Under the pieces are notes generated by a model, which saw only the letters and a program-made list of their open reading frames with translations, had not been told where the DNA came from and did not search any database. From NCBI GenBank assembly GCA_002633005.1, contig NMRA01000981.1, positions 1-64,000 of the forward strand: a stretch of 64,000 nucleotides of DNA, given 5' to 3'. Shown one piece after another: positions 4,311 through 34,242 of the stretch. Within the stretch, counting starts at the first letter, position 1. Every line of letters begins with the position of its first letter. This DNA is from Phoronis australis. Its lineage: Eukaryota; Animalia; Phoronida. A program made the position numbers and the translations under genes.

Positions 4311-4709
4311 ACTGAGTGCTGGACATAAAATGCTAGAAGGAAGTTAATCGTGAAAATGCTACGAGGCCTGCAGGAAATCACGATTGAGGGACGGCAAATT
4401 TGTGAAAATGTTTCGTACACAGTTATGCCAACCAATAAATCTACATTTTAGAAAAGGCAATTAACGGATATTCCTCGATATAGCTATGACACTCAACTTA
4501 GCTTAGTGCTGAAAACTTATGCTCACTGTGGAACTATATTAAAATGGTATGATCAATGGGCGTATGCCGATACTTCATTATGGCTGTGAGATATCGAGCT
4601 TTATTAAGGGCGAATGTATTGAAATGCTCCACACAAAATTTGGCAAAGAAATTTAAGATTTGCATAGTAGGGCAATTTCACTGGATGTTAGAGGTGAGAT
4701 GTGTCGTTA

Positions 4710-6194: not shown

Positions 6195-6530
6195 ATAGAC
6201 AAAAATTAGTTGTAAGGACTACATGAATTGTGTAATAACTGATTTCGATGATAGTTACACTGGGACGGCGTAATGAGATTCAACAAATTGAAAATCATAC
6301 GTTTGGAACGACTGCTTTCCAAGCCAGCGGCAGGTGATGGCTCGTTCATAGGAGGGTCAGATATCTCACTGTGTGGCTAAACTAAAAACACAATATATGT
6401 TAGCCATTTCACTACGGAGAAGCCCAAAACTCGGTGAAACACAAAATAGTGACCATCGTGGACACTTGATTTTGCTCTTATTTATAATTGTAGACAAATT
6501 AATGTAGCAACTAATGTTTCTTACCCAATT
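6195..6530. repeat. Dispersed repeat; second copy at about 17260-17610 in an intron
   Basis: Shared AAATTAGTTGTAAGGACTACAT...TAATGAGATTCAACAA...CACTGTGTGGCTAAA...GCAACTAATGTTTCTTAC. Confidence 0.85.
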
Positions 6531-7789: not shown

Positions 7790-8380
7790 ATATTTCCCGG
7801 TTGACACTGCCATGTTAGCTCAACTCAAGATTACTGCAACACCTGTTGTTAATGAATGAAACAGCATCGTCGATTCTGAAGTTTTTTGCCCGCACGAGTT
7901 TCCCGCTAATGTTTTCCGGACATAATATGGAGGAACAAGTTGCAGCATTTCACCTTTTTTAATTTTTCTATACTTGTGACCATTTGACCATTTTTCACGA
8001 AATTGTCTGAAGTGATACCATTTTCACCAATATGGACCTTAAAAACAACTTCCGCTTTTTCGCAGACTCGTGCTCTAGCAAATACGTACCAGGGTCACCA
8101 TAGGATCGAATTCAAACCCTTGGGACCGTAACCCAGGCGGGGGATAGAAGGGTCTCAGTCAATTTGACCTTATGAAAAGCGACGATCTGCAGAAGTCTGT
8201 AGATTAGTTCATTTTTTGACCGCCAGGTGACTCCTTCCATTCAACATGGCGGTATTACTACCATGTACGGGGAAATAGTGCGAGCAGAAATTTCACGATA
8301 AAATATGAAGGGAACGGGGTAGGAAAAATTTCCAAAATCATTTGTGTAAGTCAATGTCGTCATATTGTAAACAATTACCA
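7790..8380. repeat. Old diverged duplication; second copy at about 12000-12600
   Basis: Collinear matches such as GAAGTGATACC, GAATTCAAA.CCTTGGGAC, CCGCCAG.TGACTC and ATTGTAAACAATT. Confidence 0.75.
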
Positions 8381-12000: not shown

Positions 12001-13122
12001 CACTATTTACCAGTTGACATGGCTATGTTTGCTAAACTCCAGATTACAGCAGCACCTGTTGCTAATAACGAAACAGCGTCATTTATTCTGAATGGTGTTT
12101 TTGCTAGAAGATCCCCAATGAAGTTTTTCTGAGGTGAAATGGAGCAAAATAGGGCAGCATTTTTTGTTTTTCCATAAATCATTTGACTTCTTTTCCACAA
12201 AACTCCTTGAAGTGATACCCATTTCACAAATTTTGGTCTTGAAAAGACAACCCCTTTTTTCATGGATTGTTGTTAGTGTGTGCGTACCGGGGCCACCATG
12301 GGAATTCAAATCCTTGGGACTGTAGCTTGTGCCGGTGAACGGCGGGTTGGTCAATTTGAACTTATGGAAGATTGACGCGCTGCAGACCATGGTTGTTGGT
12401 ACACTAGTCCAGTTCTTGGCCGCCAGATGACTCGTTTCGTTCAACATGAAGGTATAGTGCGAGCAAAAATTGATGACAAAATATTAAAAGAAAGTGGTTA
12501 GGGGACATTTTTGTCTTATTTTTGGAATGACAACAGTGCAAGAAATCAAATGATACCAAAACCATGTGCGAATTTCAATGTTGCCACATTGTAAACAATT
12601 AACCAAACCTTTCTATTAAGCAGTTAACATTGCAAATACAAATTTTGCACTTTGTCAATGATAGTTGACAAGTTAAATGACCATTGACAAAAAGATGTAT
12701 CGTTCCACAAATAAATAGGCTCATGTGATAGAAGTATTTTGTGTGTTGTAAAATCAACTTAATAAAACATTTTCCATGAATAAATTACAGATTATGACTA
12801 ACAGAGACAAAAAGATGAACCTGGAAATCAAATACGAGGAAATTACCAATAAAGGAGAACGTGCTCTTAAAAGAGGATACTTCCTAGTCCTGAGAAGTAG
12901 AGAATAATGTGAAAACTGTCGCTAGGTGGCACAAATGTTGTGATATCCACCAAAAGCCGTCTCTCATTGTCACTTTTGTAGGAAGGTACTTGCCAACTTT
13001 CATGAAGATTAAGCGTTTTAGGCTATACGGACCCAAGATCAGGATCGACAACAAAATGCGCCCCAAAAATGTTTTGTAAGGTCATGAAAATCAAACTGAT
13101 TGTGCGTTGTCAATCAAAATCA

Positions 13123-15921
13123 TCACTGTTTGTGTTTCTGCTTTTTTTTCTTCTGATGACTTTGATGAATGTTTCTCTTCTTTCTTTTCTTTTTAGTGTG
13201 TCCATCATTGTCTCTGGTTGCTTCAGTCCCATCTTCATTGCTGCTGCTATCCTGAAATTCAAAAATCGGTCCACCTTAGAAGTGTAAGTTATGTGTATTT
13301 GATATTCCTACATAACAATGCATTTGTGACCTAGCTCCTTTCCACCAAGGAGCACCCTTCAAGTTTGATGAGTCGGCAAGTTGCAATAAATCTTATTTTT
13401 TTTTGACAAAGAGTTTTCACTTGCATGAATTATGTTTTATTGCTTTGGTTTAATAAACTGAAAACACATGAAATAAAAATATTTCGCTGGTAAAATTTGA
13501 AAGGATCTTTCAGCTACTGATCAAACACAAACATAGACCCTAACCTGTCACTGGTAAATATAGATTACAATTACTGTTTTAAACTTGATAAATCCTTACC
13601 TGGTAAGTTGCTACAAGTTTTTCTTGTATGAGTTCTCTCTGGCTTTTTTGTGACCCCTTGTCATAATAGGTGTCTGCTGTTTTTATACTGTGGGCCATGT
13701 GTTGGGCGAGCGAAATCTGGTCTTCCCTGGAGCCACCACTCTCCCTGATAAGGGTCACAGCTAGTTTGCGAGCTTTTGATGCTGAAAATAAAACCAACAC
13801 TCAATGACCAGACACACAAAAATTTAGTGAACTGCATCAAATAACACTGGGAAATAGATAAGTTGAAAGTTTTATGCATCATAAAAGTGCCAAATCTTTC
13901 CAGCAATGCTCTTTGTGAAATCAACTATAAAATGAAATTCCATATGCCAAGTGGGAAATCCTGAAATGTCCATAGAAACATTGCACTTGATATAATGCAG
14001 GTGAAGAGAATGGCATGCAAGTTAATGTCGCTTCACTGTAACAATTGATGAAACGGCACCGAGCAAGCTCATGGCTGTACAGTCTGAAATGATATGTCTG
14101 TACGATTTTCTAAGTGATGGCATCTTAGCACATTCTTCCATCATTACATTAAAATGAATTTTCCATATTTAAGATTGTTATTTGCCAGCTTTGGCGCAAC
14201 AGAGTGTCAAATCTCACCTGTGAGCTTTGGCCATGGCTTGAATTGGCGTTCCTCATCAGTTAGGGTTTTCCCAAAGCCGTCCCACTCAGCATGTTGTATT
14301 TTGCTGTAATTCTGTAATAGATAACCGACATAATTGTAACGCATTGATTTTGTCAATTGGAAGTGTGGAAAATGGAGAGAAGAGGTGAGGAAAATGAGAA
14401 CAAAACAAACAAATAGAAAAATGGAAAACTTACTGAGGAGTCGATCTTGCCTCCGTTTTTGTGCGACACAAAAACATAGCGACCCTCGCTATTTAAGTGT
14501 CTTGTACACTGTATAAAATTCAACAGCTCTTCGTGTACCTCAACAGGAACAAAGATTGTTGACTTCAGTCCTGCCGCCGCTGTTTTATGATGGGATAGCT
14601 GGAAAAAAAATTAGAGTACTCTTGAGTTCATTTCGCCCATTTGCTAAAGTCATACATTCACTGAAATCAGAGTAACAATATCACATGTTATTGGGTTTAA
14701 GTCTCACAACCACTAATGTTATGCATTCTCTGAAGGTAGAGTAAAATTATTGCAACAGATTTCTTCTCAAATACAACTAATAGCATGATGAGCATGTATT
14801 CAGGCTTCTTGTACTGGCCCTCATTTCATTGACTACGAGAAAAAAACATACGTGGTACTCGTACTGATGGCCCACTATGGGAGCTGTTGCATTTTGAACA
14901 CTCTCTATCTCTAGGTTAGTAATGTCGCCTGCTCTTTTGGCATTGGTAACTTGCAAGAAGAGACAGAGAGCATTCCTTCTGTGCACGAGGTTTTGGGACT
15001 TGCGGTGGTCGGAATGGTAATGGCTATTCAAGTACATCTTTACTTGCCATCGTTGAACACCTTGGGGCAGGGAGATTAGGTCGCTGAAAAAGTGATGGTA
15101 TTTAGTACATGCATCATTATTTCAGATGACTAAATTGCCATGCAAAGACCATTTTGTCACTGAGTAAGGTCTATAGCTGAACAGTCGGCATCTGGCCTTT
15201 TTGCAACTCTACAAAGCGTTCAAAGTAAATTTTTGATTCATAGCCTTCAAAAGCTTAGTTATTTAGCAAACGGAAAAAAATCAACTGTAAAATTTCATAG
15301 GAAACTATAATTTATAGGACACTGTTCCATGTGAAACTGGTCTTACCTTTTCATTTTCTCAGTCTGTACATCCTTTGTTAGACTGACAGCGCAGTTTTTT
15401 ATATAGCCGTATATTCTTTTCATGTCGGCTACTCTTACATTCAGATGGCGCAGCCACCGGGGACTGTTACCCAAAAATTCTAAGAACTTTTGGGTGTAGT
15501 GGAGGTAAATTTTGATGGTTTCTGAGCTAAAATACAAAAGGTTTAGTCATTGTTATCAGGGTGTAATATTCAAATTAGGATTCACTGTCTGAACCTTCAT
15601 TACCTGTTGCAGTTTATTATGATGTCACCAAATGTAAAATAAACAGAACTATTTTTCATCAAGACTAAAACATAGCTTAACTTATTTTTTAAAAGACATA
15701 TGTGACTTGACTGAGAAAATTGTTTGGTAAATTTGATGACTTACGTCTTTCCATTCTCTTGCATAATCTCAATTGTGCCTCCTGGTTTACCTATGGCCTC
15801 GAGGGCCATCAAACCCTCCTTCGAAAATTGCCGCACAATGGCCTTTATCCCGCTCCGGTGGGCGGCCATTGTCTTTTCTCCCCGTCTTTGCCCAGACGAG
15901 CCACGGTCTTTTAAGTCACCA
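13123..15921 (-). CDS. Tyrosine recombinase (phage integrase fold, Crypton-like) exons of the fused gene
   Basis: Seven exons join in frame: ...LCLFLQVTNAKRAGDITNL (catalytic Arg)...LSHHKTAAAG (Lys)...YVFVSHKNGGK...KLTASKARKLAVT (second Arg)...LAQHMAHSIKTADTYY (His and nucleophile Tyr), ending in KKKRKKRNIHQSHQKKKKQKHKQ*. Confidence 0.9.
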
Positions 15922-18900
15922 CTAAAAGAATCAACCAGTTTTTGATATCAAAGAAAGTACAACCTTTTGATCAACAGACTCAGTTATCAAATATTTTGAA
16001 TGTTGTCATTGATGTTTGATATAAGGTTTAATCATTGGCTGTCTGGATGGTTAAACATAAGCCGTTAGGTTGTCAACTACTCACACGTAGTCCTCCAAGA
16101 CTTTGGAAAAACTGTCCATTTCCATGGTCACGGGGGCCAGCACAGCTCTCTTGAGCATGTTCGAGTATTCTGGTGTCCCCTTTTTCAAGCCATGCTTGGC
16201 TTGAAGGTGCTGGTCCACTCTGGTTGTTACCGTTGTGCAACCAGCAAAAGGACACACATGCCTTTTGGTGCTTGACTTTGGTACCTTTTTGTGGTATACA
16301 CTACCATGGACAGTTTCAACATGGCGCTTTAGGTTCACAACCATTGCGCCACACTCCTGGCACTGCCTTTGCTTTCTTTTTGTTTTTTTGTCAGGCACAG
16401 GCTCCTTTAAAAGAAATGAAATACATCGTGATTAAATTTCTTACTTTGAAATTTTTGTGACCATTCACAAATTAATGTCAATGTCTTAACATGCATGACT
16501 TTCACTTAAAGGAGTCCTGAAATGTTATGTTTTTACGAATTTTTAATTTTGGTATGGCTTTAGTTTTAACTTACTGGTTCAGATTCAGACGATGGAAAGT
16601 CTGGTGGTTGTGAAGATAGCTGCAAACAGAAAAGCATTTAATTTGGTGAGAGACAGTTTAGTACATCTTCATGTGTCGTGTTACAATTTGTATGACATTT
16701 TAGTAACTTTAAACGTAACTTTTCGTAGTCTGAAATGTAACATTTCAAGTATTATTGTATTGAAGGGAGGTAGCTTTTTCGTAAAGTGTTAATTTGATCC
16801 AGATGATACATTTCACTAAATCCAAATGTTTCTGAGAAAAGACTGACTGCTTTACAAATATTTCCATCAATTGTTTCATTAATAATAAAAAAGTATTAGA
16901 TTGAGATCAATAAATTGTTTCTGTTTTTTTTGTGATATTGGTGTTATGTCTTTGAATTTTTCTAATGAACCCCATTTCAACTTTTTTATTTCTGTCTTAC
17001 CTCATTTGAGTCTGGGATGTATTCATCGCCTGACGAGCAAATTTCGGGGCTTGATCTTGATGGGCACCACTAGAATTTAAAGAGATGTGGTTCTTCAAAA
17101 ATGTGTAAACCAACTTGCAATGTTTTAAGTTTGCAAAATAAACACACTTACATAGATTTTATGTCTAATATTAAAACTGGCATTTAATTTGGAATGTGTC
17201 AACTATAATCAATGTCTGGTTTAGACATGGCCGTGGTATATGGGACTCGGAATCACAACTAAATTAGTTGTAAGGACTACATAAATTGTGTTTGATAATT
17301 TCGATGATATATATCTGTGTGTTTAGTTACACCAAGATGGCATAATGAGATTCAACAAGCTGAAAACCATACATCTTGAACGACTGGTTTCCAAGCCAGA
17401 GGAGACAAGGTACTTGGTCCAGCGGCAGGTGATGGCTCGTGGACTGGAGGGTCCTCACTGTGTGGCTAAAATGAAAACACAATATATGTTAGCCATATCA
17501 TTACAAAGAACCTCACAACTTGGTGAAGCACAAAATAGTGACCATTGGACACTTGATTTTGCTCTTTTAATTGTTGGCAAATTAGTATAGCAACTAATGT
17601 TTCTTACTCAATTAGGAGAAAAGGAGTGAAGTAACATAGGAGTTCCTAATCTATCCACATTACCTGGCTGGACTCTTCAAGAGTGGTGTCCACTCCTAGC
17701 AACCATTGGTCAGTCTCATAGCTGTCAATATGTGGCTGAAATGATTAAACGGTTTGCTAGTTATTAAATAGTGTGGTGGCAGGCTTGTCCAAATCATGTA
17801 TTCCTAAACACCATCCTGTTGTTAATGAATGCCCCTTGATTTTGGAGATATTGATCTCAGAGCGAAACTTTTTTTCTGACAGCAATGTCAAAAATCTTAA
17901 ATGTGCAACTTACCACATTTGTCAGGTCCTTGTCCAAATACTCTTCCTCTCTAAATTCGTAGACATCCACGTCTGCATTCTAAAATATATTTTCACTTTT
18001 CAGTTACTCTAGAGTGTAACATGGTTTATTGTAATACCAAATGGAAATCTTAATATCCAGCTTTGGTCGTTATGTTTCCTCCATTATGTTACCTAAATTT
18101 GAAACAGATTTGTTTTGTTCAACTGGATGATCACAAAGTTTAGAAACCAATTGGACTGCACGCATTTTCGTATGCAAAAACAGGCTTTGAAATGTTTGTG
18201 TTTTCCACTAATAATATCTATTTGAACTTAATGGTGTAAAGCATCTCAATTTAAAAAAGTCTCTTGCTTCACTTCTGTCTCTTCTTCATACATTGTGTCT
18301 CCTTTGGTTTCTCTCTGATGTAAATATAAAAGATTATTAATCTGATCCTCTTAACATGGAAGTTACATCATCGTATTAATCATTATCATGCTGGAAACTA
18401 AGCTACTTATTTTTAATTACTAACATTAATTTAAGAGTTTAAATGATAATAATTCATGCAGTGTAATATTAGTGTTGTTGTCAATCAATGTATTTTTAAT
18501 AAATGCAAGCAATATTAAATAAATACTACAAATTGGTGTTTTCTTCACGATTATTAGTGTACAATAACATTCACCCCTACCTCAGGCATAGCCCTTGAAC
18601 TTGCATTGAATATGTATGGAGTCTGAAAAACAGACAAAACCACGAATTATGTATCTAAATGTCGTTGGAACGACAGATGCATTAATCTGTGCACAAATAT
18701 TTGAGTTGTTTGAATTGCTTTAAATAATTGTAATCAATTAAAAATGTGGAATGCAAAAGTCTGAATGTATAGTTGTCGAAATTCACACTTTTACCACAGG
18801 TAATAACTTACCTTTCTTTTGTCCGAAATTTGTTCGACTTCAGGCTGAAATGGGTGCAATGCGAAATTGTTAATTTGTATATTTTATAATATAATCGAAA

Positions 18901-21900
18901 TCTTGAGTCATCCAGTAAAAACATATAGGAACAGCTTTAAACAAAAATTAAGCCTGGTATACAAATTTGGAAACTACAAAATTAATTTATAATGAATGTG
19001 CACAAAACAAACACAAATCTGCTGTTATGGAAATTTAGATATAAGATTCTTGAAGGGCTCTTGTCTCCTTCAAAGGGTGTTGTAAATGGTTGTTTGCTGG
19101 ACATCTGGTCAAAAATGATCTTGATCATATCAGGGCTTGGAATTTTCCGCGGAAACGCGGATTTCCGCTTTTTTCAAATGTGTTTTCCGCTTTTTTTATA
19201 ATATTTCCGCGTAAAAAAATAGGATTTGATATAAAATTTCTGCGGGAAATTCCTTTCTTACCGCGGGGTTGCAGACGACGTTCACATCGAAAAGCGGAAG
19301 TTGCTCTTCATGTTTCGGAGGAACGTAAATTGTCATCATTGCCGGGGCATCTGGGACAGCGTGGTGGGAGATTTTCAATGGCGTCTCGTGTTATTGTTAA
19401 GCGCGGCGACAAATACTACCGCTCTGCAGCCAAAAATGTGTGGGTTGGGAGTGGACGGGCGGGTTAAAAGGACGCAGATGCATGCTACTGATGGTGGTAA
19501 CGTTTTTTTTTTCTTTTTTTAGTCCTCCCGATTTTTGTCGGGGAAAGGTTCACACTGACCATTTCAAGGCTGGTTTCCGCGTTTTTTGTCATTGGTCATT
19601 CCAAGCCCTGTCATATGCTTTATGTAATTAGTGGTATCGTCCCATTTCCAGGAATATGCTCAATTTTGAGATACCATGCAGAGAGAAGAACAGGTACCAC
19701 AGAGGAGTTCAAGAGACTATCTACATTAAAACCTTGAAGCCATCCTTCAACAAACTATGTGGCGTTAAGTTGAAGCTGGCCTTGATGATGGCATGGAGTA
19801 CCAAAACAACATGAAGAAGACAATCCATTACTTGAGTTCCCATTATTCACAATCATTCTTTTGAAGAAGGCAAGATATCTCAGAGGATCTAGCAGGTTTT
19901 AAAGGTAAAAAATGTCCAAGTCAGCAGATTTTGTTTCTATAGTGCACGTTCAGGATAATTTAATTTTGTGTCCAAACATATATACCAGGGCTAAATGTAG
20001 TTAAAATGTGCAATATTACTGTGTTCCAAAAAGTTGAGCAAACATGTATTGTGACATTGTGAACATTAGCCTTATAATTCAAATGGGGCTTATTTTTCGT
20101 TAGTAAAGGCAATGCACATTTAAGTTTAACTAGGACCTTATCAACTGTTTCTGAGATGTGCTCCCCAAAGTTAGTCACATATACTTTTAAGTTAAACTAA
20201 TTTAAACATCGCAGCGTTTTCAAGTGTAAAGACGATAGCAGATTAATTGTGAAGTTACTCGTATATGAAAGACAAATACTTACATAGCCCCCGTCTGTTT
20301 TTCTCTTTCGCTTTTTGGATTTGGAATTTTTTACTTCCATCTGAAACACGCAAGAATGCATCTCAGCAAGTTGACCCAAGCTGTTCTCAAATTGAAGTTA
20401 CTAACCCTCTCAGTATATGAATATCACCGGTTATTTTCAGTGTACTATTTTTTCCTGGAATTGTATGCAGGAGCTTCAATCGGTTTTATATTTCTCTTAA
20501 AAATCCAACTCAATACATATGCAATTGGAAAGTATGTATGTGCTGACAAATTTAAAATAGCGATTTTAAGCAAAGTAAGTTTTTCACAGGTAATGGAAAT
20601 CGACTTTCAAACAGAGTGGTTCAGACAAGGTCACGTTTCGAGCATAGCAGCAATATCATCTTAAATCAAATAATGCTTGTATACTCCTAGTACATGCAAC
20701 AACTTACCACTTCGTTGTCCTTCTTTTGATCTGCTGCAGTCTGAAATGCATATGAAATACTGACTGACTCGAAAACCACATGTGATTTCTGATATGTATC
20801 ATAATCCCATTGAAGGTGAATGCCACCCAATTTAGTTAGTCTCTTTTACAGTCTTAATCAGTCTATTTGGTTCACTAGTATAGTGTTTTCTTGGCTGGAA
20901 GTTTTTAACTTTGGCGGGTTTATGTTGGTGGTGTCTTTAGTTTGGTGGTGACGGGTCTGATTGGTTTCTAAGCCACTGGCTGGGATAACTAGTGTGTTGT
21001 GTGTTTAGAACTGAAAAATCACAAATCTAATTATTACAACACTTAGCTATGTTATCCGCCCTGCCTGTACTTCATGGAAGAATAATTCGACTTTATCACG
21101 GAACTGACCCCAAACTCCTGCAACCGAACTCTGTAAGGTTACGGTACTATCATATACTTAAAAATCAGTGACAGTGAAATAATACAACACGTTTGTTCAA
21201 GAACTCAATGTTTTTGTAAATGTTTTACCTCATTAAGCATGTTGTCAACTGCTGACCGACTGCATTAGACGCTCTGACGTCATTGGTTAATTTGAAAACA
21301 TCTGTTTGCCATCAGGTGCCGGGTAAAAGAACTGAACTCATTGTTATCCAGTTGAACTACTCTATCTAAATTGATACAAAACTGGTTGTTTTTCGGTGGC
21401 ATTCTCCCTTAAGGAAATACTTAAATTGCAGTTTAGCTGAAACTAGAATGTGTGTACTTTTATTTTTTCTTCCAAACTTGTATAACGGAGCTCAATTGAT
21501 GTCCAAGAGATTTATAAATTCTACTACAAGTTCTTCAGTCTGAAGGTAAGGATATGTGTAGTGCGAAATTGTGAATGCGCTGTTAATTTTAACCAAGAAA
21601 GTCGATTTGAACTACTGTAAACAGAGCATCAGAATAATTATTTTATTACAGGCAAATAGTACTTACATTTTCCGTGTCCAATTTTCTCTTGGAACCTTTG
21701 GCTTTGGTCTGAAACACACAAATATGCTATTCGAGATGCCAATCAAACCTATTCAGAATAGAGTTGCGAACTGTATTTCAGTTCTTAATTAATTTTATCA
21801 AAGATTATTTTCAACAAATCATTATTTTTTCTCCAAACTCGAACTAGGAAGCAAGACAAAATACTGTTCTTAGGGTCATCTTAAAAACTTCAGTTTTTTA

Positions 21901-24900
21901 CACATGCATTGCAAATTGAAAATGGGGTGAAAACTCTAAGTAACTTAATTTAAATGAGGTTAATTTTAGTCACACCTTTTGTTTTCTCCACCAGAGTGAA
22001 CCAGGATCTCCACGGTAATCATAATGGAGCTCCTCTCCTTTGTCGATATCCCTGCTCGCATACAGGACCAGGCGAGGAGTGTCAGACACTACTTTCAATT
22101 TCATAGTGCTATTGCACTCAGCTGTGCACTCCTCTGCATCATTCACGAGATGCGCAAGTCTTCCAACAGTGTCTTTGGCATCAATGCTACAGAACAAAAA
22201 GAGGAAGTGTGTGAGTATTAAAGTGGAATGGTTGAGTGTTGTGTTACATGTCGATTGTATGATGCACGAACACCATGTGGGTGAGTGTTTGCACTTACCA
22301 CATTTGTTTTCCACTGTATTTGAAGTAATACTGGTAAAATCTAGGGAAAGGTGTATCTGGAGGCACCGATACTTTGACGTCTCTTGCCAGTAACAGTTCC
22401 CCAACATATTCCAGAAGGAAGTCGCCCTTGCTGAAGGTTTTTGTTGTAAAGACACCACGGCCTGAAATATTTTTAAGAACAAAAACGTTGAAACCTCTTT
22501 CACACACGCGCACCCCCACTTCCACCGCCTTTATGTGGCTTGTCTGTCATGTCATGTGCCGCCCCAACCCTGAGTTGTCACCCACTGTCTTCGTCAATTT
22601 TGTACCAATTCTTTTTTGTTAGTGCCGTCCTCTTCCATACTTACTGCTGTCTACCTGTGGCTTCAACATTCCCCTAGCATCATTCACAGTAGATGTTCAC
22701 ATTGCTCTATAGTTAAATTTGAACTTCAATTTCACCTAAATATCATTTTGTAAAACTATCCAAGTCATGACATCACGCAAACAGTTATTAATTTTTCCAA
22801 TAATCATGCATTGTACCAATGTAAAGTTTAATTGCATCCTCTTACATGTATGCTCAAAAACAATTCATGTGAATTAATAAGTTACCTAAGTCTGAAAACA
22901 ATTATACCTCTAGCACAAAAGTAGTGCATGACATCAGTGGCTCGTGTGAGCACTGCAACTATTCTGAGACTGTTCCAACAAATCCTCGGGCTGTAAGTGT
23001 GATGATCACTGTAATAGTTTACTTAAGATTTAAAAGTGCATTACCCTTTTCTTCGGAGACGTATCGGACATCAAAGCCTTCTTGGTCATAACCCGCATTG
23101 CAGAAAAATTGAGCATTCTGCAAACCAAATTGAATTAGTGTAAAGACATTGCCATGTTTAGTTAAGATGTTATATTGTCATCACATGCTGACATGGAAGC
23201 ATTGTTGAGTGCAAAGCAATAACAGATCAGTTCCAGAAGTTGTCGTTTTATCATTGACCAATAAGGGGATAGCATATAAACCCGCTTTCTACCTGAAACA
23301 TGCAATATTATGTGCAGAATGGTAGTCAGTAACATCAAAGGCTTATTTAAGAGGACTAAAGGTCACGGTGTTAATGTTTTGTTTTTCTCCGAATTGGTTG
23401 GGAAGAGATGATTTTATAATTAGAATTTTTACTGCCTCCAAGAAACTTGCAGTTTAGAACTTCATACCATATTGTAGGGTGCTGAAAATGATATACTAAC
23501 AAAAGTCCCTCCAGTGCAAAAGTAGTAGCTGTAGTAGTAAAGTGTATTCTGGATCCATTAACAACATATCTATTTTGTCTCAAGCAAACGTAGTAGCATT
23601 CCAAGTGTTGGGATGATAACAGATTAGCTTTTATAACAGGCAATTAAGGTATTATTTTGATTGCTAAGGCGATAGATCAAGTGAAAAGGTTGTTTTTTAT
23701 GACTTACATGCTCCCTGTCTGTTTCTCTCGTCCTTCGTTTTTTTGTTTGAGAAGTAACGGGTTCCACCTGAAACGTGCATTAATTTGTGTAGGCTTCAAG
23801 ACCACAAAACTCGTTTTAGGAGGTGTATCTCATTTCTTAGTAGCCAAATGTCAAAGATCTCATTCATCTAGTAACATTATTTCTTCCAAACTTGTATAGA
23901 GGAGCTTATTTTGCAAATAGTGATTTTTCAACCCTATTATTTTTTTAATTTTATTATACGTGCGTTGTGAAATGGGAGCAGGCTGAACAGTTCCCACTTA
24001 CAAAATTGAAGTTTTGAGAGCAGATAATTCAAGTTATCATTTTATGGGCAATTTTTACCTCTCTCTTCTCCACATTTTGAATCTGTGTTTTCCTTTTCGT
24101 GTCCTTTTTTTCAGATGCCATCTGAAACATGCAAGAATGTGTATAGAGACAGTAACCAAAGTTGAATTCAGACTAGACTTGTGAATTACCTTTCATCTTG
24201 AACAGTCCCACTATTATTTTTTCAAACAGGTGCTCTCTTGTTCTAGATAAAACAGTTTTCACAGTTTTCTTAAAAGCTTGGTAGATATGCAATACAAAAT
24301 TGTGAATCTGCTGACAATTTTGAAACTAATAACTTTAAACAAAATGTGCGTATTAAATCATGCATTGGCAACTGCATACATGTATATGTTCTGTCTCAGT
24401 CTGTAATTTCTAAGAGCATTTATGACTAACAAGTTGTAACAAGGTTATATTTTCATTTGCTAAGCCAATGGACTTATAATTCAGTCTCATTATAACATGG
24501 AAGCATTTTCAAATGTAAAGGCAATGTTAGTTCGATTCTAAAATTGAAACACAGAAGCTACTTCATATACCTCTCCAGTCTCCGCTTTTTCATGTACCTC
24601 TCCCTTCTCTGCTTTTCTCCGCTTTTTCTTTTTCTTTTTCTTTTTTTCGGAATCCATCTGAAACACGTTGGAATATGTGTTGAGATGTAAAGATGAAATC
24701 AGAATTCAGACTAGAAGTATGAATAGTATCTCAGTAATATTAAATAGTTATTTAACAAATTAAGTTTTAGGTTTTCTTCAAATTTGTGCTTACTACATTG
24801 AATTTTGTGCTTTGATCACAGGCAACAACTTACTGCTCTCTTATCCTTTTGCTTGTTTTGAAACTGAAATGCCTAGGGAAATTTACAGACTAACTGAAAA

Positions 24901-27900
24901 CTCACTGGAATCATGTATCGTGGCCACAGTGAAAAAATATTAAAATCACACTTTTGCTGCTTGGACTGTTTTGCGTGTTCTTTGATATTGAGCTTCCGAA
25001 CTTGTACAGTTGAGTTAAATTGTTCAAGAAGAATGCGATTCCAGAGCAAGTTCGTGAACTGGAGACACCATACCCTGCTAGGGATTGTATTAAAGAGAAC
25101 TTCATAACTCTGCTAATCTACAAGGTAGTGACCATCATGAACACCATAATTTATTGTTTTAATCGTTTATAAAATAAAAAAGCTTCAAATGTTTTTTTCA
25201 ATTGGGATCAAATGATTAAACATAGAAATTCCTCATCTGTTGATATTACCTGTCTGAACTCCTCAACTGGCTCAAACGTGGTGTTCTGTACCGGCAACCG
25301 AGGTTCCTTATCGAAGCTGTCAATGGGCCGCTGAAAGTATCACAGGCTTCCTTGATATTAAAGGGGCGTTATTAGTTATGATCTTTACCTTCGCTCAGTC
25401 ATGGTGATATGTAAAGTAGTTTAAGATTAAATGGTGTAGTAGCAGGCTTGTCAGGAATACAAGGTAGGCTTGAAAATGCTACAGTTTTGGTAGAAAGCAT
25501 CTTCACAATAAGGAAATTCACTTGGTTTTCTTGCATATTGGCTAAATAGTGAAACAACATTTTTCTGGAAAATATTAAATGTCCAACTTACCACTTTCTT
25601 TAACTCCTTATCCAAATACTTTGTTTTCTGTGTTGTGAACAGTGACTTGTCTGTTGTTTTTTCCTCCCTTAGTTCGCACACATCCACATCTGTGTTCTAA
25701 AATATATTTTGCACATTTCATTAATTTTGGTAAAACATACCTTTCCTTACCAAATTGAAGTCTTAGCATGAAAATGTGGTCATCATGTCACCAACTTTTA
25801 AAAGGGATTCAGTGCTTTAAACTTCGTGATCAAAACAGAAACTTTAAAAGTTTAAAAACCAATTGATTTTAGGCGAGAACATTAAACAAATACTGGTACA
25901 AATTGAGGTTTTCCTCACGATTGTTGATCCACAGTGACGTTTCCTTTATCTCAGAAGTAACACTTCCACTCACTTTGATTGTTTTAGGTGGGTGAAACAC
26001 AAAGTTCACCAAAACACCAATTATGCAGCAGTGACCTCATATGAATACGAGATAGCCATAGGAAAAAGTTTTCTGAATGGCAAATGTGTTTACATTTGTA
26101 CTGATTATTGCGCCATTTGCATTGCCTTAAAAAATAGTGATTACAATATAAATATTTGAATTAAGTGGAATGTGAAATCTTGAATATATTGAATGTTTTA
26201 ACCAAAAAATGTGACATTTCTTTTTTCCTGTGTAAAGGAATTTGTTTAAGTATAGTGGCAACAGCGGTTTAACTCAAGTAATTCGTGCTTTTTTCACAAG
26301 CAGTACGTTACTTTTACATTGTTGTCATTTGCTTTATTTAAAGCTGAAAGGTGGGCAATGAGAAATTGTGAATGTATGTATGTAATAGTATTATGGAGAT
26401 GTTGAGCCATGCGGTGAAAACATATTCTTGGAACAACTTTTAGCAAAAATCAACTCTGCAGTTTAAGTTTGGAAACAATGTTTAAGTTCATGAAATTTAG
26501 GCAAAAGAAACACAAATCTGCTCTTTTGGACAGTTTCATAATTAGGTTCTTGGTTAATTGCCGAAATTACAGTCACATGTGATCTTGTTCATGTTACTTA
26601 AGTCATCGGTGCTATCATACCATTTGCAGGAGTTTGAGATCAACAATCAAAATGTCGAGATACCATGCAGAGAGAAGAAACTGGTTCCTTAGGAGAGTTC
26701 AAGAGATCATCTACATTAAAGCCTGAAGCCATCCTTCAATGAACAAAGTGGTGTTAGGTTTAAGCTGCTGTCTGCTTGAGATGGTTGCATGGAGTACATA
26801 GCAACATGAAGAACACTACCCATTACTGGAGTCTCACTGCTCACAGTCATTCCTTTAAAGGTCTTGGAGGTTCTGGGCGTTTTTAAAGGTAAATTTCCAG
26901 AACAACAGATTTGTGTTCTTATAGTGCGCATTGGGTGTAATTATTTTTCTGCGAACTTGATGGGAAGAGCTGATTTTATAATTAGCATTTTTACTACCTT
27001 CTTGAAAATTGCAGTTTAGTATGTTACGGGATACTGTAAAATGCTGAGTGTTATACCGAATTTGCCGCAATAACCGCCTAAGCCCCTATAAGTGCCCCCA
27101 ACGAGTTTTTAGACTTTGCTAAAATAAGCGACAATCCATGAACGTGTACATGCGAAAAATAAATTACCTACAGTCATAAAATTCTACAGTAACATCTTCA
27201 ATTTTTTAAATAATGTCTGACAGTCCTGAAAAAATCATGGTGCGCAGAATTTGTTTACGAGGCTCGCCGCTATCTCGGTATTTAGCCATAACTTTACACT
27301 TCAATCTTCCGCCATGCCTCAAAACCAACACAAAAGTTTTGCTGATCTTATGAGGACCAATGTTCTGGCCTTTCTGAACAGACGTAGTTATAAATGGTTT
27401 ATAATAAGTGCCCCCCTGAAACGAACTTTTCTTAGCTTACTGGGCCGTTATTACGGCAAATACGGTTCTACCAAAAGTCCAACCAGTGCAAAAGTAGTAA
27501 CTTTTTCAAATATAAAGTGTATACCGCATCCATTAACAGTATATCTATTTGATCTCAAGCAAATGTGGTAGCATTTCATGTGTTAAGATGATAACAGATT
27601 AACTCAACAAGTTATCTTTTTGTCATGGACAATCAAGGTATTATTTTGAGTGCTAAGGCGATAGCAGATCAAGTGAAAAGGTTATCTTTTGAGGACTTAC
27701 ATGCTCCCTGCCCCTTTCTGTCATCCTTTGTTTTTTTGTTTGAGAGATTTCGCCCTCCACCTGAAACGTGCATCAATTTGTGTAGGCTTCAAGACCACAA
27801 AACTCGGTTTAAGAGGTGTATCTCATTTCTTAGTAGCCAAATGTCAAAGATCTCATTCATCTAGTAACATTATTTCTTCCAAACTTGTACAGAGGAGCTT

Positions 27901-30900
27901 ATTTTGCAAATAGTGATTTCTTAACCCTATTAAGAATTGCAGTTTAGTATATGTTCTATATCAAATGTGAACGACTGAAAATTTATGTCGCAGAGGATTC
28001 TCAAAAGCCCGAAGTCTTTTATCGACCACTTTACTGAGTGTGAGTTGGCGTCCAGCCATTGTTGGCCAGCCTTTACGAAGGACTATCTCAAACAAAGTTC
28101 TCAGAATCCTTGCGGAGTTCTAAAAAAACAGAAAAAATGAACTTTTGCAAATACAGTAGCCTATTCTAGTGAACAAATGAGAGCAGTTTAATTCAGAAGG
28201 TTATCATTTTATGGGCACTCTTTACCTCTCTCTTCTCCACATTTTGACTCTGTGTTTTCTTTTTCATTTTCTTTTTATCAGATTCCACCTGAAACATGCA
28301 AGAATATGTATAGAGATAGTAACCAAAGTTGGAATTCAGACTAGACTTGTGAATTATCTTTCATCTTGTACAGTCCACTATTATTTTTTGCAAGCACGTG
28401 CTCTTTAAAGTTTATTAGATATGCAATACAAAATTGTGAATTAGCTGACAATTTTGAAGCTAATGAATTTACACAAAATGTGCGTATTAAATCATACATT
28501 GGCAACTGCATACTTGTATGTTCTGTCTTAATCTGTAATTTCTAAGAGCATTTATTACTAACAAATTGTAAAAACGGTTATATTTTCACTTTCTTAGCCA
28601 ATGGACTTATAATTCAGTCTCATTATAACATGGAAGCGTTTGCAAATGTAAAGGCAATGTTAGTTTGATTCTAAAATTGAAACACAGAAGCTACTTCATA
28701 TACCTCTCCAGTCTCGGCTTTTTCAAGTACCTCTCCCTTTTCTGTTTTTTTCTGCTTTTTCTTTTTCTTTTTTTCGGAATCCATCTGAAACATGTTGAAA
28801 TATCCGTTGACATGTAAAGATGAAATCAGAATTCAGACTAGAAGTATGAATAGTATCTCAGTAATATTAAATAGTTATTTAACAAATTAACTTAGGTTTT
28901 CTTCAAATTTGTGCAGATGATACATTTCAAGACAAAATGATGTTTGTACAGTTTTTTTTAAACCTGCAGCTTACTACATTGAATTTTGTGCTTTGATCAC
29001 AGGCGACAACTTACTGCTCTCTTATCCTTTTGCTTGTTTTGAAACTGAAATGCCTAGGGAAATTTACAGACTAACTGAAAACTCACTGGAATGATGTATC
29101 ATGGCCACAGTGATGAAATATTAAAATCACATTTTGCTGCTTGGACTGTTTTGCGTGTTCTTTGATATTGAGCTTCCAAACTTGTACAATTGAGTTAAAG
29201 TGATCAAGAAGAATGGGATTCCAGACCAAGTTCGTGAACTGGAGACGCCATAAACTGCTAGGGATTGCATTAAATAGAACTTCATAACTCTTCTAATATG
29301 CAAGTTAGTGACCATCATGAACACCATATTTTGTTGTTTTAGTCGTTGACTAATTAACAAAGCTTCAAATGTGTTTTTCAATAAGGAGAACATGATTAAA
29401 CATGGAAGTTTTTCATTTATTCATATTACCTGTCTGAACTTCTCAGCTGACTTAAATGTGGTGTCCTGTCCTGGCAACCGCGGCTCCTTATCGAAGCTGT
29501 CAATGGGCCGCTGAAACGATCAAATGGCTTTCTTGAAATTAAAGGGGGCGTTATTAGTTATGATCCTTACCTTCGCTCAGACATGGTGATATGTAAAGTA
29601 GTTTAAGATTAAATGGTGTAGTAGCAGGCTTGTCAGGAATACAAGCTAGGCTTGAAAATGCTACAGTTTTAATGTACTGTTTGGCAAGTCTCGAGGATTG
29701 CGTAGAATGTGTATTGCCAATAAGGAAATTCACTTGATTTTTAGCATATTGGCTAAATAGCAAAACGACATTTTTCTGGAAAATATCAAATGTCCAACTT
29801 ACCCCTTTCTTTAACTCCTTATCCAAATATTCTGTAGTCTGTGTTGTGAACAGTGACTTGTCTGTTGTTTTTTCCTCCCTTAATTCGCACACATCCACCT
29901 CTGCATTCTAAAATATATTTTATACCTTTCATTAATTTTAGTAAAAACAAACATTGCAATACCAAATGGAAATATTAGCCTGAAAGTGTTATCATGTCTC
30001 CATGCATTATGTTACCAACTTTTAAAAGGGATTCAGTGCTTTAAACTTCGTGATAACAACAGAAACCTTAAAAATTTATAAACCAATTGATTTTAGACGA
30101 GAACATTAAACAAATACTGGAACAAATTGAGGTTTTCCTTGTGATTATTGATGGAGAGGGACGTTTTTCTTACATGAGAGGTCCCACTTTGACTCCCTTT
30201 GATTACTTTAGGTGGGTGAAACAAAAAGTTAACCAAAACACCAATCATCCAGTAGGGTACCTCATATAAATATGCGAGCCATAGGAAAATATTTTCTGAA
30301 TTACAAATGTGTTTACATTTGTTCTGATATTTTTGCCATTGGCGTTGTGTTAAATAATAGTGATCCAGTAAAAATATTTGAATAATGTGAAATGCAAAAT
30401 TTTGAAATGTTTTTAACCAAAAAAATATGGACATTACTTTTTCGTGTGTACTTGTTTAAGTATAATGGCAATAGCTGTTTAATTCAAGTAATTCATGGTT
30501 TTTCCAAAGCAATCAATTACTTTTCCATTGTCGTCATTTGCTTTACCTAAAGCTGAAAGGTGTGCAATGAGACCTTGTGAATGTATGTATTCAATAGTAT
30601 TATGGAGATGTTGAGCCATGCGGTGAAAACATTCTTGGAACAACTTTTAGCAAAAATCAACTCTGCAGTTCAAATTTGGGAACAACAAAATTATGTTACA
30701 TTCCCAAATTAAATTACATACCCAAAAGAAACACAAATCTGCTCTATTGAACATTTGCATATGAGATCCTTGGAGAGCTCTCATCTCCTTTCAAAGGTGA
30801 TGGTTAATTGCCGGAATTACAGTCACATGTGATATTGTTCTTGTTACTTAAGTCATTGGTGCTATCATACCATTTGCAGGAGTCTGAGTTATCAATCAAA

Positions 30901-33900
30901 TGTTGATATACCATGCAGAAAGAAGAAACTGGTTCCTTAGAGGAGTTCAAGAGATCATCTACATTAAAGCCCAGAAGCCACCCTTCAATGAACTTGGCGG
31001 TGTTAGGTTTAAGCTGCTGTCTGCTTGAGATGATTACATAGAGTACATAGCAACATGAAGAACACTACCCATTACTGGAGTTCCCGCCATTCACAATCAT
31101 CCTTTGAAGGTCTTGGAGGTTCTGGGAGTTTTTAAAGGTAAATTTCCAGAACAATGGATTTGTGTTTTAATAGTGCGCATTGGGTGTAATTTAATTGCTG
31201 TGTCCAAACTTGTACAGTATGGTTAAGTTTTGTTAAAAGTTAGCGATTCTACAGCTTTCCTAAAAAGTGAAGCTTAGGATGCATGTGATGTGACATTGTG
31301 AACTCACTATTAGTCTTCTAGTTTGAATGAGGTTACTTTTTCGCTTGTAAAAGCCCGCAGCATTTAAGGCTATTTAGGATCTTATTGATAAGTATGTGCA
31401 TGAAGTCAAATATCTAGAAAATTATAGAATATAAGTACAAAATTTCCTAGAAGTAAAAAGTCTGCGGAAATTATACTTTTACTTGATGCCATTCAACAAT
31501 TAAATCGGTCAGTTGTATTCCATGTATTTTAAGAAAAACGACCGAAAATGAAAAGTACTTTCACAGCAAAACAGCGGTATCACTACAATGTCCACATATT
31601 GTTTAATTGAATTGTTCAAGACAAAATCGTCAAAGCACTTTGTTTTTGTTGTAAACCAGTTCTGATTTTTCATGAAAATCCCGAAAGTTATAATTTTTGA
31701 TAGCCCCACAACAGTGGATTATTTTGAAAACAAACCTGAACGGCATTTTGAGAACAGGGCATAAAGAATCAGATCTGAAAGTTTCATATCAGTTCCATCA
31801 GCTGTTTCAGAGATATGCTTTTCCAAATTGTACCAAATTTGGCCACTTTTCCTTCCATCTCCCAGATATCGTTAAGTTGAACTAATCCCAACATGGTATC
31901 ATTTTCAAATGTAAATAAGGCAATTGCTGATTGATTCTAAATTGATCAGTACATGACAGGCATATACTTACATATTCCCTTTTTCTCTTCTTGCGTTTTT
32001 TAGTTTTGGATTGTTTTGGTTCTGTCTGAAACACACAAAATTTGTATTTAAGCTGTTTTCAGATATATAATTAATTTTGATATGCCATTGATTCAATTTT
32101 TGTCTAAATTATATGGAGATGCTTAAATTCTGTTTCCACTCCTCTTTAAAATGCAACTCTGTACATATGCAAGGGAAACTGAACAAGTTGACAAATTTAA
32201 AATAACAATTTTAAATAAAATTAGTTATTCAAGTGTCAAGGAAATCGACATTTAATCAGAGTAATTCACACAAGGTCTTCTTGCAAGAACAGCTATTATC
32301 GCCTCTTAATATGAATAATTCATGTTTTTATCAACAGGCAACAACTTACCACTCCATTGTCCTCCTTTTGACCAGCTTCAGTCTGAAATATGTATGACAA
32401 CATAGACTGACTCGAAAACCGCAATTGAATTATAATTGGAAGTATGCATCATAGCCTCTGTTACAAAATATTTAAATTGCATTTTAGTTGTGTTCTTTTA
32501 TTTTGTGCCTCTTAATATGTATAGTGGAGTTCAATTTATGTTAAAAAAAATTAGTGATTCTTCTGGAAGTTGGACGGCTGAAGTTTAGGATATGTATAAA
32601 GCAAAATTGTGAACAGGCTGTTAAATTTAATTTGAAGAACTCTAATGCTAGAAAAGGCAATAGGCATTTGATTGGAACTAATGTAAACATAGATTCATTT
32701 CCAAGTATAAAGGCAGATTTATTCAAAAAGTTTCATTGCAAGTAATTACACACCTCTCCTGTGTCTGATATTCTCCCCTTCTTTTTCTTTTTTTTCTTTT
32801 TTTGGGACTCCATCTGAAACACACAAGAATATGTATGGGCTTAAATATGAAAGGTGACATCAGACTGCTGTACTAAGTCATACCCTGTGTATAGTGGGAG
32901 GAGATTAAATTAAGTTAAAGGCAAAATATTTTACAGTACTTTTAGTGTTTGAAGTTTCTTATATGTGCCTCGCGAAGTTGTGATTGTGCGGCAGCCATTT
33001 AATTGAAATAGTTCACATTTTTATCACTGACAACAACTTACTGCTGCCTTGTGTTGTTTTTGCACGGCTTCAGTCTGAAACATGTAAGAATATAAGAGTG
33101 ACTCAAAAAACACATTTGGATTGGAACACTAATAATGAATCACACGTGAGCTCACAATGGAATAATAAACCATAGTGCCAGTGTACTAATTTTGGTGAGT
33201 AAATATGCAAATTATATTTTAGCTGAGACAATCTGACTTGCATTCGGTCAACTAAAATGTGACCTAAAGCCAAAGGTCACCAAAAACGACAATGAGGTTA
33301 TAAGCATGGTCAATGCATTTTCACTTTCTGTGTCCAAACCTGTTCACCAGAGCTTAAGTGATGTTCAAGAAAAACTAGTAATTCTACAACTCTTTAAAAA
33401 CTTTAGTTTAGGATTTGTTCAGTGCAAAAATGTAAACATGCCGCACATGTTACACTAACAATCAAACAAGGCTATGTTTTTGCCTGCAAAAGTAAAGGCC
33501 TTTTAATTTGAGCAAATGCAAACATGTTAGCATTTTCAAATGCGAAGACAATGACAAATGGATTCAACAAGTTATCTTTGTATCTCATCTGGGGGAATTC
33601 CTTACTTTTTTCTCGTCTGGTTTTTGCATCCACTTTTTTTTCTTTTTCTCAGAGTCCACCTGAAACATGCAACAAAATTTGTAGACTTAAAAACAATAGG
33701 TGAATTCACTCTGGAATGATTACTTATTTCCCCATGATACAAATTTTGGTGAAAAATATGGCGATTAGGTTTAAGTTGAAACGGTTTGGCTTGACTTGTC
33801 TCATAAGAACTAATGATTAAATTCACAATTGTAAGGTTGCAAAAATCTCGAGCGTATTAATGCTATTTCAGGTGAAAGGGCATCTGTTTAATTCAAGCAA

Positions 33901-34242
33901 ATGCACATGTGATAGCCTTTCCAGTGTTACGGCAATTACTCGATTTCAAGAAAAAATACATCCATGAAATTGGCAGCTCGGTAGTGGCTGTTCATTTAAG
34001 TCTAATAAATTCAATCAGTGACATTTAAGCAATAATTATATGAGGAACGGTCATCCTGATCTCATTTAATGATATAAGCTGTTTAATTTCTTACATGCAA
34101 ATTTACAAAAACCTTGGTGCAATTGTCTTGGAAAAAAAAGTCAGAAATTAACATGTCAGTAGTTCAGAACAATTACCTTTTGGGCATCATCCTGATGCGC
34201 TGAAAAGGGCTTCAAGCTGCTGTAGTCGAATTCAAAGTTCAT
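13123..34242 (-). CDS. Predicted 34-exon gene, about 1069 aa: Lys-rich micro-exon repeats + SETD8/PR-Set7-like SET domain + 2 C2H2 zinc fingers + tyrosine recombinase + basic tail
   Basis: Manual splicing; all introns GT-AG, phases compatible, no in-frame stop. Exons 5' to 3': 34242-34177, 33659-33606, 33074-33042, 32813-32754, 32382-32350, 32025-31972, 29510-29430, 29044-29015, 28784-28704, 28288-28226, 27760-27701, 25330-25250, 24863-24834, 24657-24571, 24121-24059, 23767-23708, 23117-23045, 22461-22299, 22186-21976, 21708-21667, 20740-20708, 20340-20284, 18844-18812, 18622-18581, 17735-17664, 17069-17001, 16404-16085, 15921-15745, 15526-15347, 15083-14852, 14598-14434, 14311-14218, 13781-13600, 13251-13123 (TGA). 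The start codon and inclusion of each micro-exon are uncertain. Confidence 0.72.
16085..16404 (-). CDS. Exon with two C2H2 zinc fingers
   Basis: CQECGAMVVNLKRHVETVH and CPFAGCTTVTTRVDQHLQAKH. Acceptor tttcttttaaag at 16405, donor GTGAGT at 16084, phase-2 join to exon 15921-15745. Confidence 0.9.
17001..21708 (-). CDS. Linker array of 7 phase-0 micro-exons between the SET and zinc-finger exons
   Basis: TKAKGSKRKLDTEN, TAADQKKDNEV, MEVKNSKSKKRKRKTDGGY, PEVEQISDKRK, TPYIFNASSRAMPE, PHIDSYETDQWLLGVDTTLEESSQ, WCPSRSSPEICSSGDEYIPDSNE. All are bounded by AG/GT and are multiples of 3. Confidence 0.72.
19131..19610. mobile_element. 480 bp MITE, hAT-like CAGGG ends, 6 bp TSD
   Basis: Perfect 13 bp TIR CAGGGCTTGGAAT / ATTCCAAGCCCTG with TCATAT on both sides. 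Absent from the paralogous intron sites near 26590 and 30840. Confidence 0.9.
21976..23117 (-). CDS. SET domain, PR-Set7/SETD8 (KMT5A)-like, three exons
   Basis: Spliced: NAQFFCNAGYDQEGFDVRYVSEEKGRGVFTTKTFSKGDFLLEYVGELL...YQYYFKYSGKQMCIDAKDTVGRLAHLVNDAEE...PRLVLYASRDIDKGEELHYDYRGDPGSLWWRKQK. Matches the SETD8 motifs KGRGV, GDFxxEYxG, YxYYF, CxDA, RLxxLxN and RDIxxGEELxYDY. Confidence 0.92.
23370..31190. repeat. Intragenic tandem duplication (about 4 kb period); an older paralogous block lies at about 17650-20760
   Basis: About 23370-26940 aligns with about 26930-31190 (five exon pairs plus introns, e.g. 25250-25330 vs 29430-29510). About 17650-20760 is a diverged copy of about 29420-32420. 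Confidence 0.9.
23708..34242 (-). CDS. N-terminal array of 16 phase-0 micro-exons (30-87 nt), mostly Lys-rich
   Basis: Nearly all follow a tttcag acceptor, end at a GT donor, have a length divisible by 3 and contain no stop. Examples: VDSEKKKKKWMQKPDEKK, MESQKKKKKKKKGRISDTGE, TEPKQSKTKKRKKRKREY, MDSEKKKKKKKKRRKAEKGEVHEKAETGE, RPIDSFDKEPRLPVQNTTFEPVEEFRQ. Confidence 0.72.
27056..27465. mobile_element. 410 bp Tc1/mariner/pogo-type MITE (TA|CCG ends)
   Basis: TIR CCGAATTTGCCGCAATAAC / GTTATTACGGCAAATACGG. Absent from the paralogous site near 23490. Confidence 0.82.

Follow-up and report, generated by a model that had tools for sequence, protein, structure and literature searches.

A SETD8-like domain, zinc fingers and a predicted tyrosine recombinase in one open frame of Phoronis australis, probably the gene of a Crypton-like transposon

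SETMAR (Metnase) is a single-copy domesticated primate gene in which a SET domain is fused to a mariner DDE transposase. Transposons carrying a SET methyltransferase of their own are represented, in the text available from Kojima 2025 (PMC12730594), by oomycete HarbingerS and MuDR only, and the available part of PMC4067079 describes Phytophthora proto-Helentron-Pi as another. The definition of the Cryptons, their circle-excision model and the way in which their domesticated copies have lost catalytic residues are treated in sections of Kojima and Jurka (2011, PMC3212892), together with the groups CryptonA, CryptonI, CryptonF and CryptonS; CryptonV is named in a section of PMC8869645. Here, a stretch of 64,000 nucleotides (nt) of the phoronid Phoronis australis (assembly GCA_002633005.1, contig NMRA01000981.1, positions 1 to 64,000; hereafter the window) was analysed, and a gene on its minus strand was found to join a SETD8-like domain, a mini-exon linker, two C2H2-type fingers and a predicted tyrosine recombinase in one open frame. 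It probably represents the one recombinase gene of a DNA transposon of animals that uses a tyrosine recombinase and would move like a Crypton.

An earlier note on this DNA had proposed that SET exons, seven phase-0 linker exons, a two-finger C2H2 exon and seven recombinase/tail exons on one strand splice into a single frame of 1069 aa. This gene model is real, but was originally mis-sized (Table 1). Splicing of the minus strand from 23117 to the stop codon at 13123 reproduced the layout as 21 exons (three SET, ten phase-0 linker, one two-finger and seven recombinase/tail exons), with AG/GT at all junctions and one stop-free frame, which is 825 aa long and includes three linker exons more than had been counted. 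The supposed gene limit at 23117 is a phase-0 splice acceptor without a start codon, and the remaining coding sequence of the window, formerly read as decayed, includes 18 more intact phase-0 exons that extend the model as far as an exon beginning with ATG (34242-34177), for a total of 39 exons and 1189 aa; all of the upstream mini-exons have AG/GT borders, lengths in multiples of three and no stop. When mini-exon candidates with a TTTCAG acceptor were defined by splice signals alone, 15/20 at 23.2-34.4 kb and 6/7 at 16.4-22 kb were symmetric and stop-free, as against 1/28 elsewhere in the window on both strands, indicating that the mini-exons do not arise by chance, with the reservation that duplicated exons among the candidates are not independent. 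Chance splicing as the source of the open frame was rejected on these counts. Divergence is as rapid in the duplicated exons as in introns (436 matches and 75 mismatches vs 3820 and 661) and the internal duplications are old (68-83% identity); length differences between exon copies are multiples of three that keep the frame, with the exception of a 32-nt copy. It is uncertain which exon is joined to SET exon 1, since the window sequence upstream of the SET contained no exon ending in the 'SP' pre-SET motif of the family.

The two large SET exons both matched Pfam SET, and human SETD8 (KMT5A, PR-Set7) was the best solved-structure match for each of them as well as for the family profile, in agreement with the SETD8-like methyltransferase named in the earlier note. 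The tyrosines corresponding to the catalytic and product-specifying residues of SETD8 are present, the one at 22408 matching SETD8 Y245. The SETD8 motif N-H-S reads N-D-A in the window. A search with the third SET exon against 1.84 billion representatives gave 218 matches, most of them short fragments; among the 150 examined, 89 of 97 scorable matches carried N-D, which is therefore regarded as a signature of the subfamily. A Pro-rich insert replaces a helix seen in SETD8 and most relatives, and the domain is internal, preceded by a 364-aa extension and followed by 676 aa. It fell in a group of 15 rows (support 95/92) that includes three mollusc SET-recombinase fusions. The window SET is thus closest to SETD8 and keeps its tyrosines, and differs from it in not being C-terminal, in N-D for N-H, in the altered insert region and, at the level of the family, in being multi-copy rather than a single-copy orthologue. 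An ordinary SETD8 orthologue was rejected because of the internal position, the N-D-A motif and the grouping with a recombinase-linked subfamily. A PIP-degron pattern was found neither in the window protein and 11 relatives nor in the sole canonical-type control, which makes this result uninformative.

Residues of a tyrosine recombinase occur in order in the catalytic exons: R 14935, K 14586, S-x-x-R 13779/13770, H 13692 and Y 13665. The recombinase had been called apparently intact with an HxxR motif; R, K, the second R, H and Y bear this out, and the first His does not, since the motif reads S-K-A-R, a family-wide substitution for which all 10 relatives described below carry T, S or N. Against a profile of these 10 relatives the catalytic region of the window scored 19.5 bits with R/K/R/H/Y aligned, the best of 500 shuffles reaching 6.1. 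Its N-terminal part is shorter than in the relatives, and the exons at 15921-15745 and 15526-15347 had no match to their equivalent region. The AlphaFold model of a SET-free relative, P0215 (mean predicted local distance difference test 71), matched XerA (E 5e-5), XerH, an integron integrase, lambda Int and Cre; a fold search with a 945-aa relative returned only SET matches among those listed. In atlas searches, the recombinase part of a relative matched a phage-integrase cluster at 0.92 besides eukaryotic clusters without a name, and the finger exon, whose Pfam zinc-finger matches were weak and below cut-off, hit only unnamed clusters.

The same layout was recovered from other animals. A profile of 12 SET proteins of this subfamily, run against proteins of 551-2000 aa, gave 25 matches, corresponding to 20 animal proteins of the SET subfamily (13 distinct loci) and five other SET proteins. 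Ten of the 13 loci have the complete recombinase motif set (F-N-x-R-R, then T/S/N-x-x-R, G-H and Tyr), in one the sequence breaks off after the first Arg, and in two it stops short of that residue. The order SET near the N-terminus, low-complexity linker or repeats, C2H2-type finger and recombinase is found in these 10 complete relatives, from as many species in four animal phyla (seven bivalves, a sea cucumber, a fish and Hydra), and their database isoforms differ by whole linker or tail units of 10-25 aa. Pfam Phage_integrase was matched below cut-off in 4 of 12 relatives scanned and Ulp1 protease in two, and no integrase match was seen among 26 longer SET matches scanned. The SET and recombinase trees of the relatives disagree: P0155 and P0163 are SET sisters, a pairing rejected for the recombinase (approximately unbiased test, p-AU 4e-5), and the trio P0163/P0165/P0166 of the recombinase tree is rejected for the SET (p-AU 0.01). 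These tests, made on 11 rows with groups chosen after seeing the tree and the alignment, suggest that SET modules have been exchanged among recombinase lineages. Metagenome contigs contained 80 SET loci, and none of 93 loci compared resembled the window, or any of six relatives, in the recombinase part. As separate observations on the SET subfamily, the database proteins P0001 and P0002 contain eight and five tandem SET domains of this kind, and the same SET is joined to Ulp1 (P0042), weakly to OTU (P0138), to C1 (P0113) and to FHA (P0169).

Near-identical, dispersed copies were found in three species. In Mytilus trossulus, among 15 listed of 38 cluster members, seven gene ids lie on five contigs of 80-113 Mb; the recombinase is 99.5-100% identical in 8/8 copies tested, and the SET is complete and 98-100% identical in five, partial in two and absent in one. 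Five Apostichopus proteins lie on five contigs (recombinase 98-100%; full SET 99-100% in 4/5), and nine Sinanodonta members lie on five contigs (SET 97-100% in 8/9). These copies indicate that the SET travels with the recombinase as a unit. The clusters of nine other relatives were looked up, and seven have a single member, so that young copies are not present in every relative. The proposal of the earlier note, that this is the mobilising gene of a Crypton-like element with its own chromatin writer or a domesticated derivative, holds at the level of the family, by layout, fold and dispersed copies; instead of the single syntenic copy that the note had named as evidence against mobility, the family is multi-copy, on several contigs in the three species. 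For the window genome, the signs of copies are a partial excess of DNA depth and two old fragments in the window itself, at 6203-6530 and 7760-8255 (75% and 68% identity), which are related to linker exon 17465-17373 with its flanks and to the region 11968-12455, respectively. The fragments suggest an earlier copy, and an element that reaches 3' of the gene, as 11968-12455 lies downstream of the stop codon.

As in Cryptons, which are eukaryotic DNA elements, a tyrosine recombinase is the only mobilising enzyme: no reverse transcriptase (RT) or DDE transposase was found in the window gene model or among the Pfam matches of its exons. No terminal repeats were evident, and Cryptons end without terminal inverted repeats or long repeats, with direct repeats of at most 4-6 bp. 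A further likeness is the accessory Ulp1/C48 protease of two relatives, which the available sections of PMC3212892 describe for CryptonF and CryptonS. The gene would be expected, by analogy, to move like a Crypton. It differs from Cryptons in carrying a SETD8-like domain, a linker of mini-exons and C2H2 fingers N-terminally of the recombinase in the same protein, and in the S, T or N that stands for the first His of R-H-R-Y in this gene and its relatives. Neither the window exons (scanned singly, with low power) nor 12 full-length relatives gave a DUF3504 or GCR1_C match, and the absence of DUF3504 sets them apart from the CryptonA group. CryptonV is defined by its recombinase clade and by microsatellite target sites; the relatives may correspond to Repbase CryptonV or CryptonH. 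A DIRS/Ngaro retrotransposon, characterised by Gag, RT/RNase H and split or inverted terminal repeats, was rejected because the 39-exon gene contains no RT and no long open reading frame (ORF) of that kind adjoins it. The likeness to SETMAR is a SET domain joined to a transposon enzyme, and the differences are its DDE transposase, its other SET family and its single copy. The oomycete transposons also carry a SET methyltransferase aboard; as far as the cited texts describe them, HarbingerS, MuDR and proto-Helentron-Pi are DDE or rolling-circle elements of Phytophthora, and the SET of proto-Helentron-Pi is a separate ORF resembling Clr4, whereas here an animal, SETD8-like SET is in frame with a tyrosine recombinase. 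The word 'methyltransferase' does not occur in the main text of PMC3212892. Our literature search found no SET-recombinase transposon described as an element, although Repbase Reports and the Kojima review may contain one.

A mechanism can be sketched for such an element. The fingers and the recombinase would bind the ends of the element, and the recombinase, judging from its superfamily, would excise it as a circle and reintegrate it through a phosphotyrosine intermediate. The SET, tethered by a linker that is predicted to be long, flexible and variable, being built of cassette mini-exons, would monomethylate H4K20 on nucleosomes of the element or of the circle, to judge from the fusion. Whether the SET is an active H4K20 writer acting in cis we consider an even matter. 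A purpose in replication licensing, in which a circle or insertion bearing the element's own mark would undergo additional replication, is put forward tentatively; it is favoured because excision and reintegration gain no copies and because tethered PR-Set7/SETD8 is sufficient for Mcm2-7 loading, according to the part of PMC5002974 consulted. The alternatives, anti-silencing or the opening of chromatin at recombination sites, are close rivals of licensing. Expression would likely be confined to early embryos, as for the 'KMT5A-like' genes of Hydractinia and sea urchin. The reading bears on how tyrosine-recombinase transposons that excise and reinsert gain copies. If it is true, many animal phyla harbour a transposon with a histone writer inside its moving enzyme, very young copies of which are available for tests, and intact animal tyrosine recombinases from young elements are candidate enzymes for genome engineering.

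The KMT5A-like genes were described by Ayers et al. (2023, PMC10368294), who counted dispersed genes of this kind in Hydractinia (65), Hydra (24), sea urchin (61) and Nematostella (one); most of them have an N-terminal SET and are activated after fertilisation. By 4 h of development 13 of the Hydractinia genes are active, and for these the S8 table gives DNA_BRE_C in 3/13 and a length above 1000 aa in 9/13. Those authors interpreted the genes as host chromatin regulators, and their main text has no mention of 'recombinase' or 'integrase'. The pair of SET and recombinase domains thus already stands in a published table, though it was not taken for a mobile element. The likeness to our relatives, as far as that source shows it, consists in an N-terminal SETD8-like domain in proteins of 1000-1500 aa, dispersed and patchy occurrence across species and a conserved C-terminal part; on this layout, the two sets would appear to be the same. 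SET-recombinase transposons may accordingly explain the extra 'H4K20 methyltransferase' genes active in early animal embryos, and, if so, they offer a testable answer to why Hydractinia and sea urchin have so many SETD8-like genes, many of them activated in the early embryo, and Nematostella a single one. The full combination, namely widespread unrecognised transposons in cnidarians, molluscs, echinoderms and fish that self-mark H4K20 to license their circles, swap their SET between recombinase lineages and lie behind the KMT5A-like genes active at zygotic genome activation, is a speculative proposal that we hold rather doubtful as a whole. A three-copy kmt5a expansion in Capitella appears in the available parts of a group of papers (among PMC5753468, PMC3537659, PMC12153100 and PMC4738411). 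As a side observation, the SET-recombinase protein P0166 of the fish Parambassis is annotated as a PAK1 kinase isoform, with longer isoforms of the same gene, and the available Hydractinia and Hydra tables contain two SET proteins that also have kinase domains; a host-element fusion or a merger of gene models is possible in these cases.

Several results weigh against the transposon reading of the window gene. Its recombinase is at most 20% identical to those of the 10 relatives, with a very long branch, and is tied to the integrase/Cre-like fold of P0215 by the profile match and an hhalign probability of only 39%; no Pfam or NCBIfam recombinase match was obtained for the exons scanned singly, which has low power, word-index homologue searches with two recombinase exons, which are weak, gave no matches, and none of the 150 listed SET matches resembles the finger/recombinase part. 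The change from N-H-S to N-D-A and the Pro-rich insert make the H4K20 specificity of the predicted writer uncertain. The dispersed copies were grouped by clustering at 90% identity and are similar by construction, their spread over contigs being the informative part. In one DNA run, depth was raised at ~14.9-18.0 kb (174-440), and stood at 107-135 over the SET exons and 89-128 over the last recombinase exons; this measure, a poor one of copy number, gives no sign that the SET accompanies the nearest copies in this genome. None of the 25 longest inverted repeats at 8-44 kb brackets the gene, and the ends of the element were not identified. The RNA consists of three runs of one study, at low depth, with about a fifth of each used. 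The splice from finger to recombinase (16085 to 15921) was seen in four reads each in two of the three runs, and the junctions from 21976 to 16404 fared less well, as no SET-to-linker or linker-to-finger junction was among the rows listed (15 of 24; 15 of 70). Sense reads were concentrated at 14-16.4 kb, and over the finger and recombinase exons they show several base differences to the window, so that a paralogue or another allele may be their source; sense depth over the SET exons was 0-0.56, with antisense reads dominating. Because RNA links only the finger to the recombinase, the fusion of SET and recombinase rests on the open frame and on the relatives annotated as single proteins. Plus-strand reads, assigned to the antisense strand from two types of spliced junction, dominate 16.9-35.5 kb, over the 5' two-thirds of the gene, and rise towards 35.5 kb; they could represent a host transcript containing the element or a precursor of silencing RNA.

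The best of the competing explanations, which we nevertheless judge unlikely, is a domesticated and immobile host gene derived from such an element and serving as a sequence-specific H4K20 writer or recombinase. It would account for 39 exons that stay in frame despite internal duplications down to ~70% identity, although selection for the frame acts on still-moving elements as well. The 364-aa N-terminal extension, contrasting with the near-N-terminal SET of the 10 complete relatives, together with the old internal duplications and an intronic insertion resembling a MITE (miniature inverted-repeat transposable element), suggests a long-lived locus, which is another point against mobility; further insertions in introns and the near single-copy depth of the SET region agree with it, and a host role was favoured for the KMT5A-like class by Ayers et al. 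in the sections cited. Domestication is opposed by the retained catalytic set, which is lost in domesticated Crypton recombinases, the DUF3504 genes, as described in part of PMC3212892, by the multi-copy, dispersed state of the family in other species, and by the related fragments in the window and the divergent reads and contigs that overlap the finger/recombinase exons.

Less probable still are two adjacent genes, a SET-plus-linker gene and a zinc-finger/recombinase gene with a promoter of its own. This would fit the single kind of sense junction seen, the position of the sense reads and the extra DNA depth, which excludes the SET; several database relatives stop after SET and linker, and, in the Hydractinia data, the adjacent ids HyS0050.112 and HyS0050.113 belong to a SET gene of 431 aa and a XerA-like gene. 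Against it, the spliced model has neither a stop nor a terminal exon from 21976 to 16404, the linker exons there are all phase 0 and open, the finger exon begins at a strong acceptor, and the 10 relatives are annotated as one protein each, with isoforms that differ in complete units of the linker.

A larger composite element or an endogenous DNA virus using the recombinase as its integrase is very improbable: the lack of defined element ends and the matches of the P0215 fold to nudivirus/hytrosavirus VLF-1-type and phage integrases would suit it, but the identity in these matches is 13-15%, which is no nearer than for cellular Xer proteins, viral contigs held no relative of the window recombinase exon and only distant SETs by profile (26-47% identity, E 2e-5 or worse), seven other window ORFs scanned were only retrotransposon pieces, and the gene has 38 introns of spliceosomal type.

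Table 1. Features of the gene and its introns (positions in the window)
Feature	Position	Strand	Basis or remark
Likely first coding exon, ATG directly after AG acceptor, 66 nt, phase 0	34177..34242	-	splicing by coordinates
17 phase-0 mini-exons of 30-105 nt, rich in Lys/Arg, most of them tandem duplicates of the linker exons that follow the SET	23708..33659	-	
Upstream mini-exons 1-6 of 17	33659-33606, 33074-33042, 32813-32754, 32382-32350, 32025-31972, 29907-29803	-	
Upstream mini-exons 7-12 of 17	29510-29430, 29044-29015, 28784-28731, 28288-28226, 27760-27701, 25696-25592	-	
Upstream mini-exons 13-17 of 17	25330-25250, 24863-24834, 24657-24598, 24121-24059, 23767-23708	-	
SET exon 1 (pre-SET, start of GRG motif)	23045..23117	-	begins at splice acceptor
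SET exon 2, Tyr at 22408	22299..22461	-	Pfam SET
SET exon 3: N-D motif 22143-22138, YDY motif 22023-22015, WW end	21976..22186	-	Pfam SET
Linker of 10 phase-0 mini-exons, at first basic, later acidic and rich in Pro/Ser	16575..21708	-	
Linker mini-exons 1-5 of 10	21708-21667, 20740-20708, 20340-20284, 18844-18812, 18622-18581	-	
Linker mini-exons 6-10 of 10	17979-17914, 17735-17664, 17465-17373, 17069-17001, 16619-16575	-	
Exon with two C2H2-type zinc-finger motifs (16362-16291, 16254-16192)	16085..16404	-	motifs; splice to 15921 in RNA
Two exons (15921-15745, 15526-15347), predicted DNA-binding part of recombinase	15347..15921	-	role inferred from position
Recombinase catalytic exons 15083-14852, 14598-14434, 14311-14218, 13781-13600	13600..15083	-	motif alignment
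Final exon with the stop codon; tail first acidic, later basic	13123..13251	-	
Frame-shifted 32-nt copy of linker exon 18844-18812	30521..30552	-	excluded from model
Second 32-nt frame-shifted copy of linker exon 18844-18812	near 26343-26312	-	excluded from model
Intron of antisense spliced transcript overlapping SET exon 3	19902..21993	+	6 reads in 1/3 runs
Very high-copy MITE-like insertion with inverted ends of 13 bp (starting CAGGG), flanked by a 6-bp direct repeat	19130..19611		in intron 20283-18845

The MITE-like insertion is a passenger and not part of the gene, and its abundance in RNA comes from copies elsewhere. A complex nested tandem array occupies 96-4455, with units of 89/179 bp and ~1170 bp and 20 plus-strand copies of a 9-bp motif; a 120-bp piece related to it lies inverted in an intron of the gene at 16678-16791, and the motif recurs in repeats at 53.6-56.8 kb. 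The array shares this motif with one intron site of the gene and could not be tied to the element. Retrotransposon remnants were found as an integrase zinc-binding domain (49474-49881, minus strand) and a PNMA/gag-like frame (61174-62025, plus strand). Single N positions at 5551, 62535 and 63333 are probably assembly joins, and the tandem repeats of 176 bp and 223 bp around the last two may be assembly duplicates.

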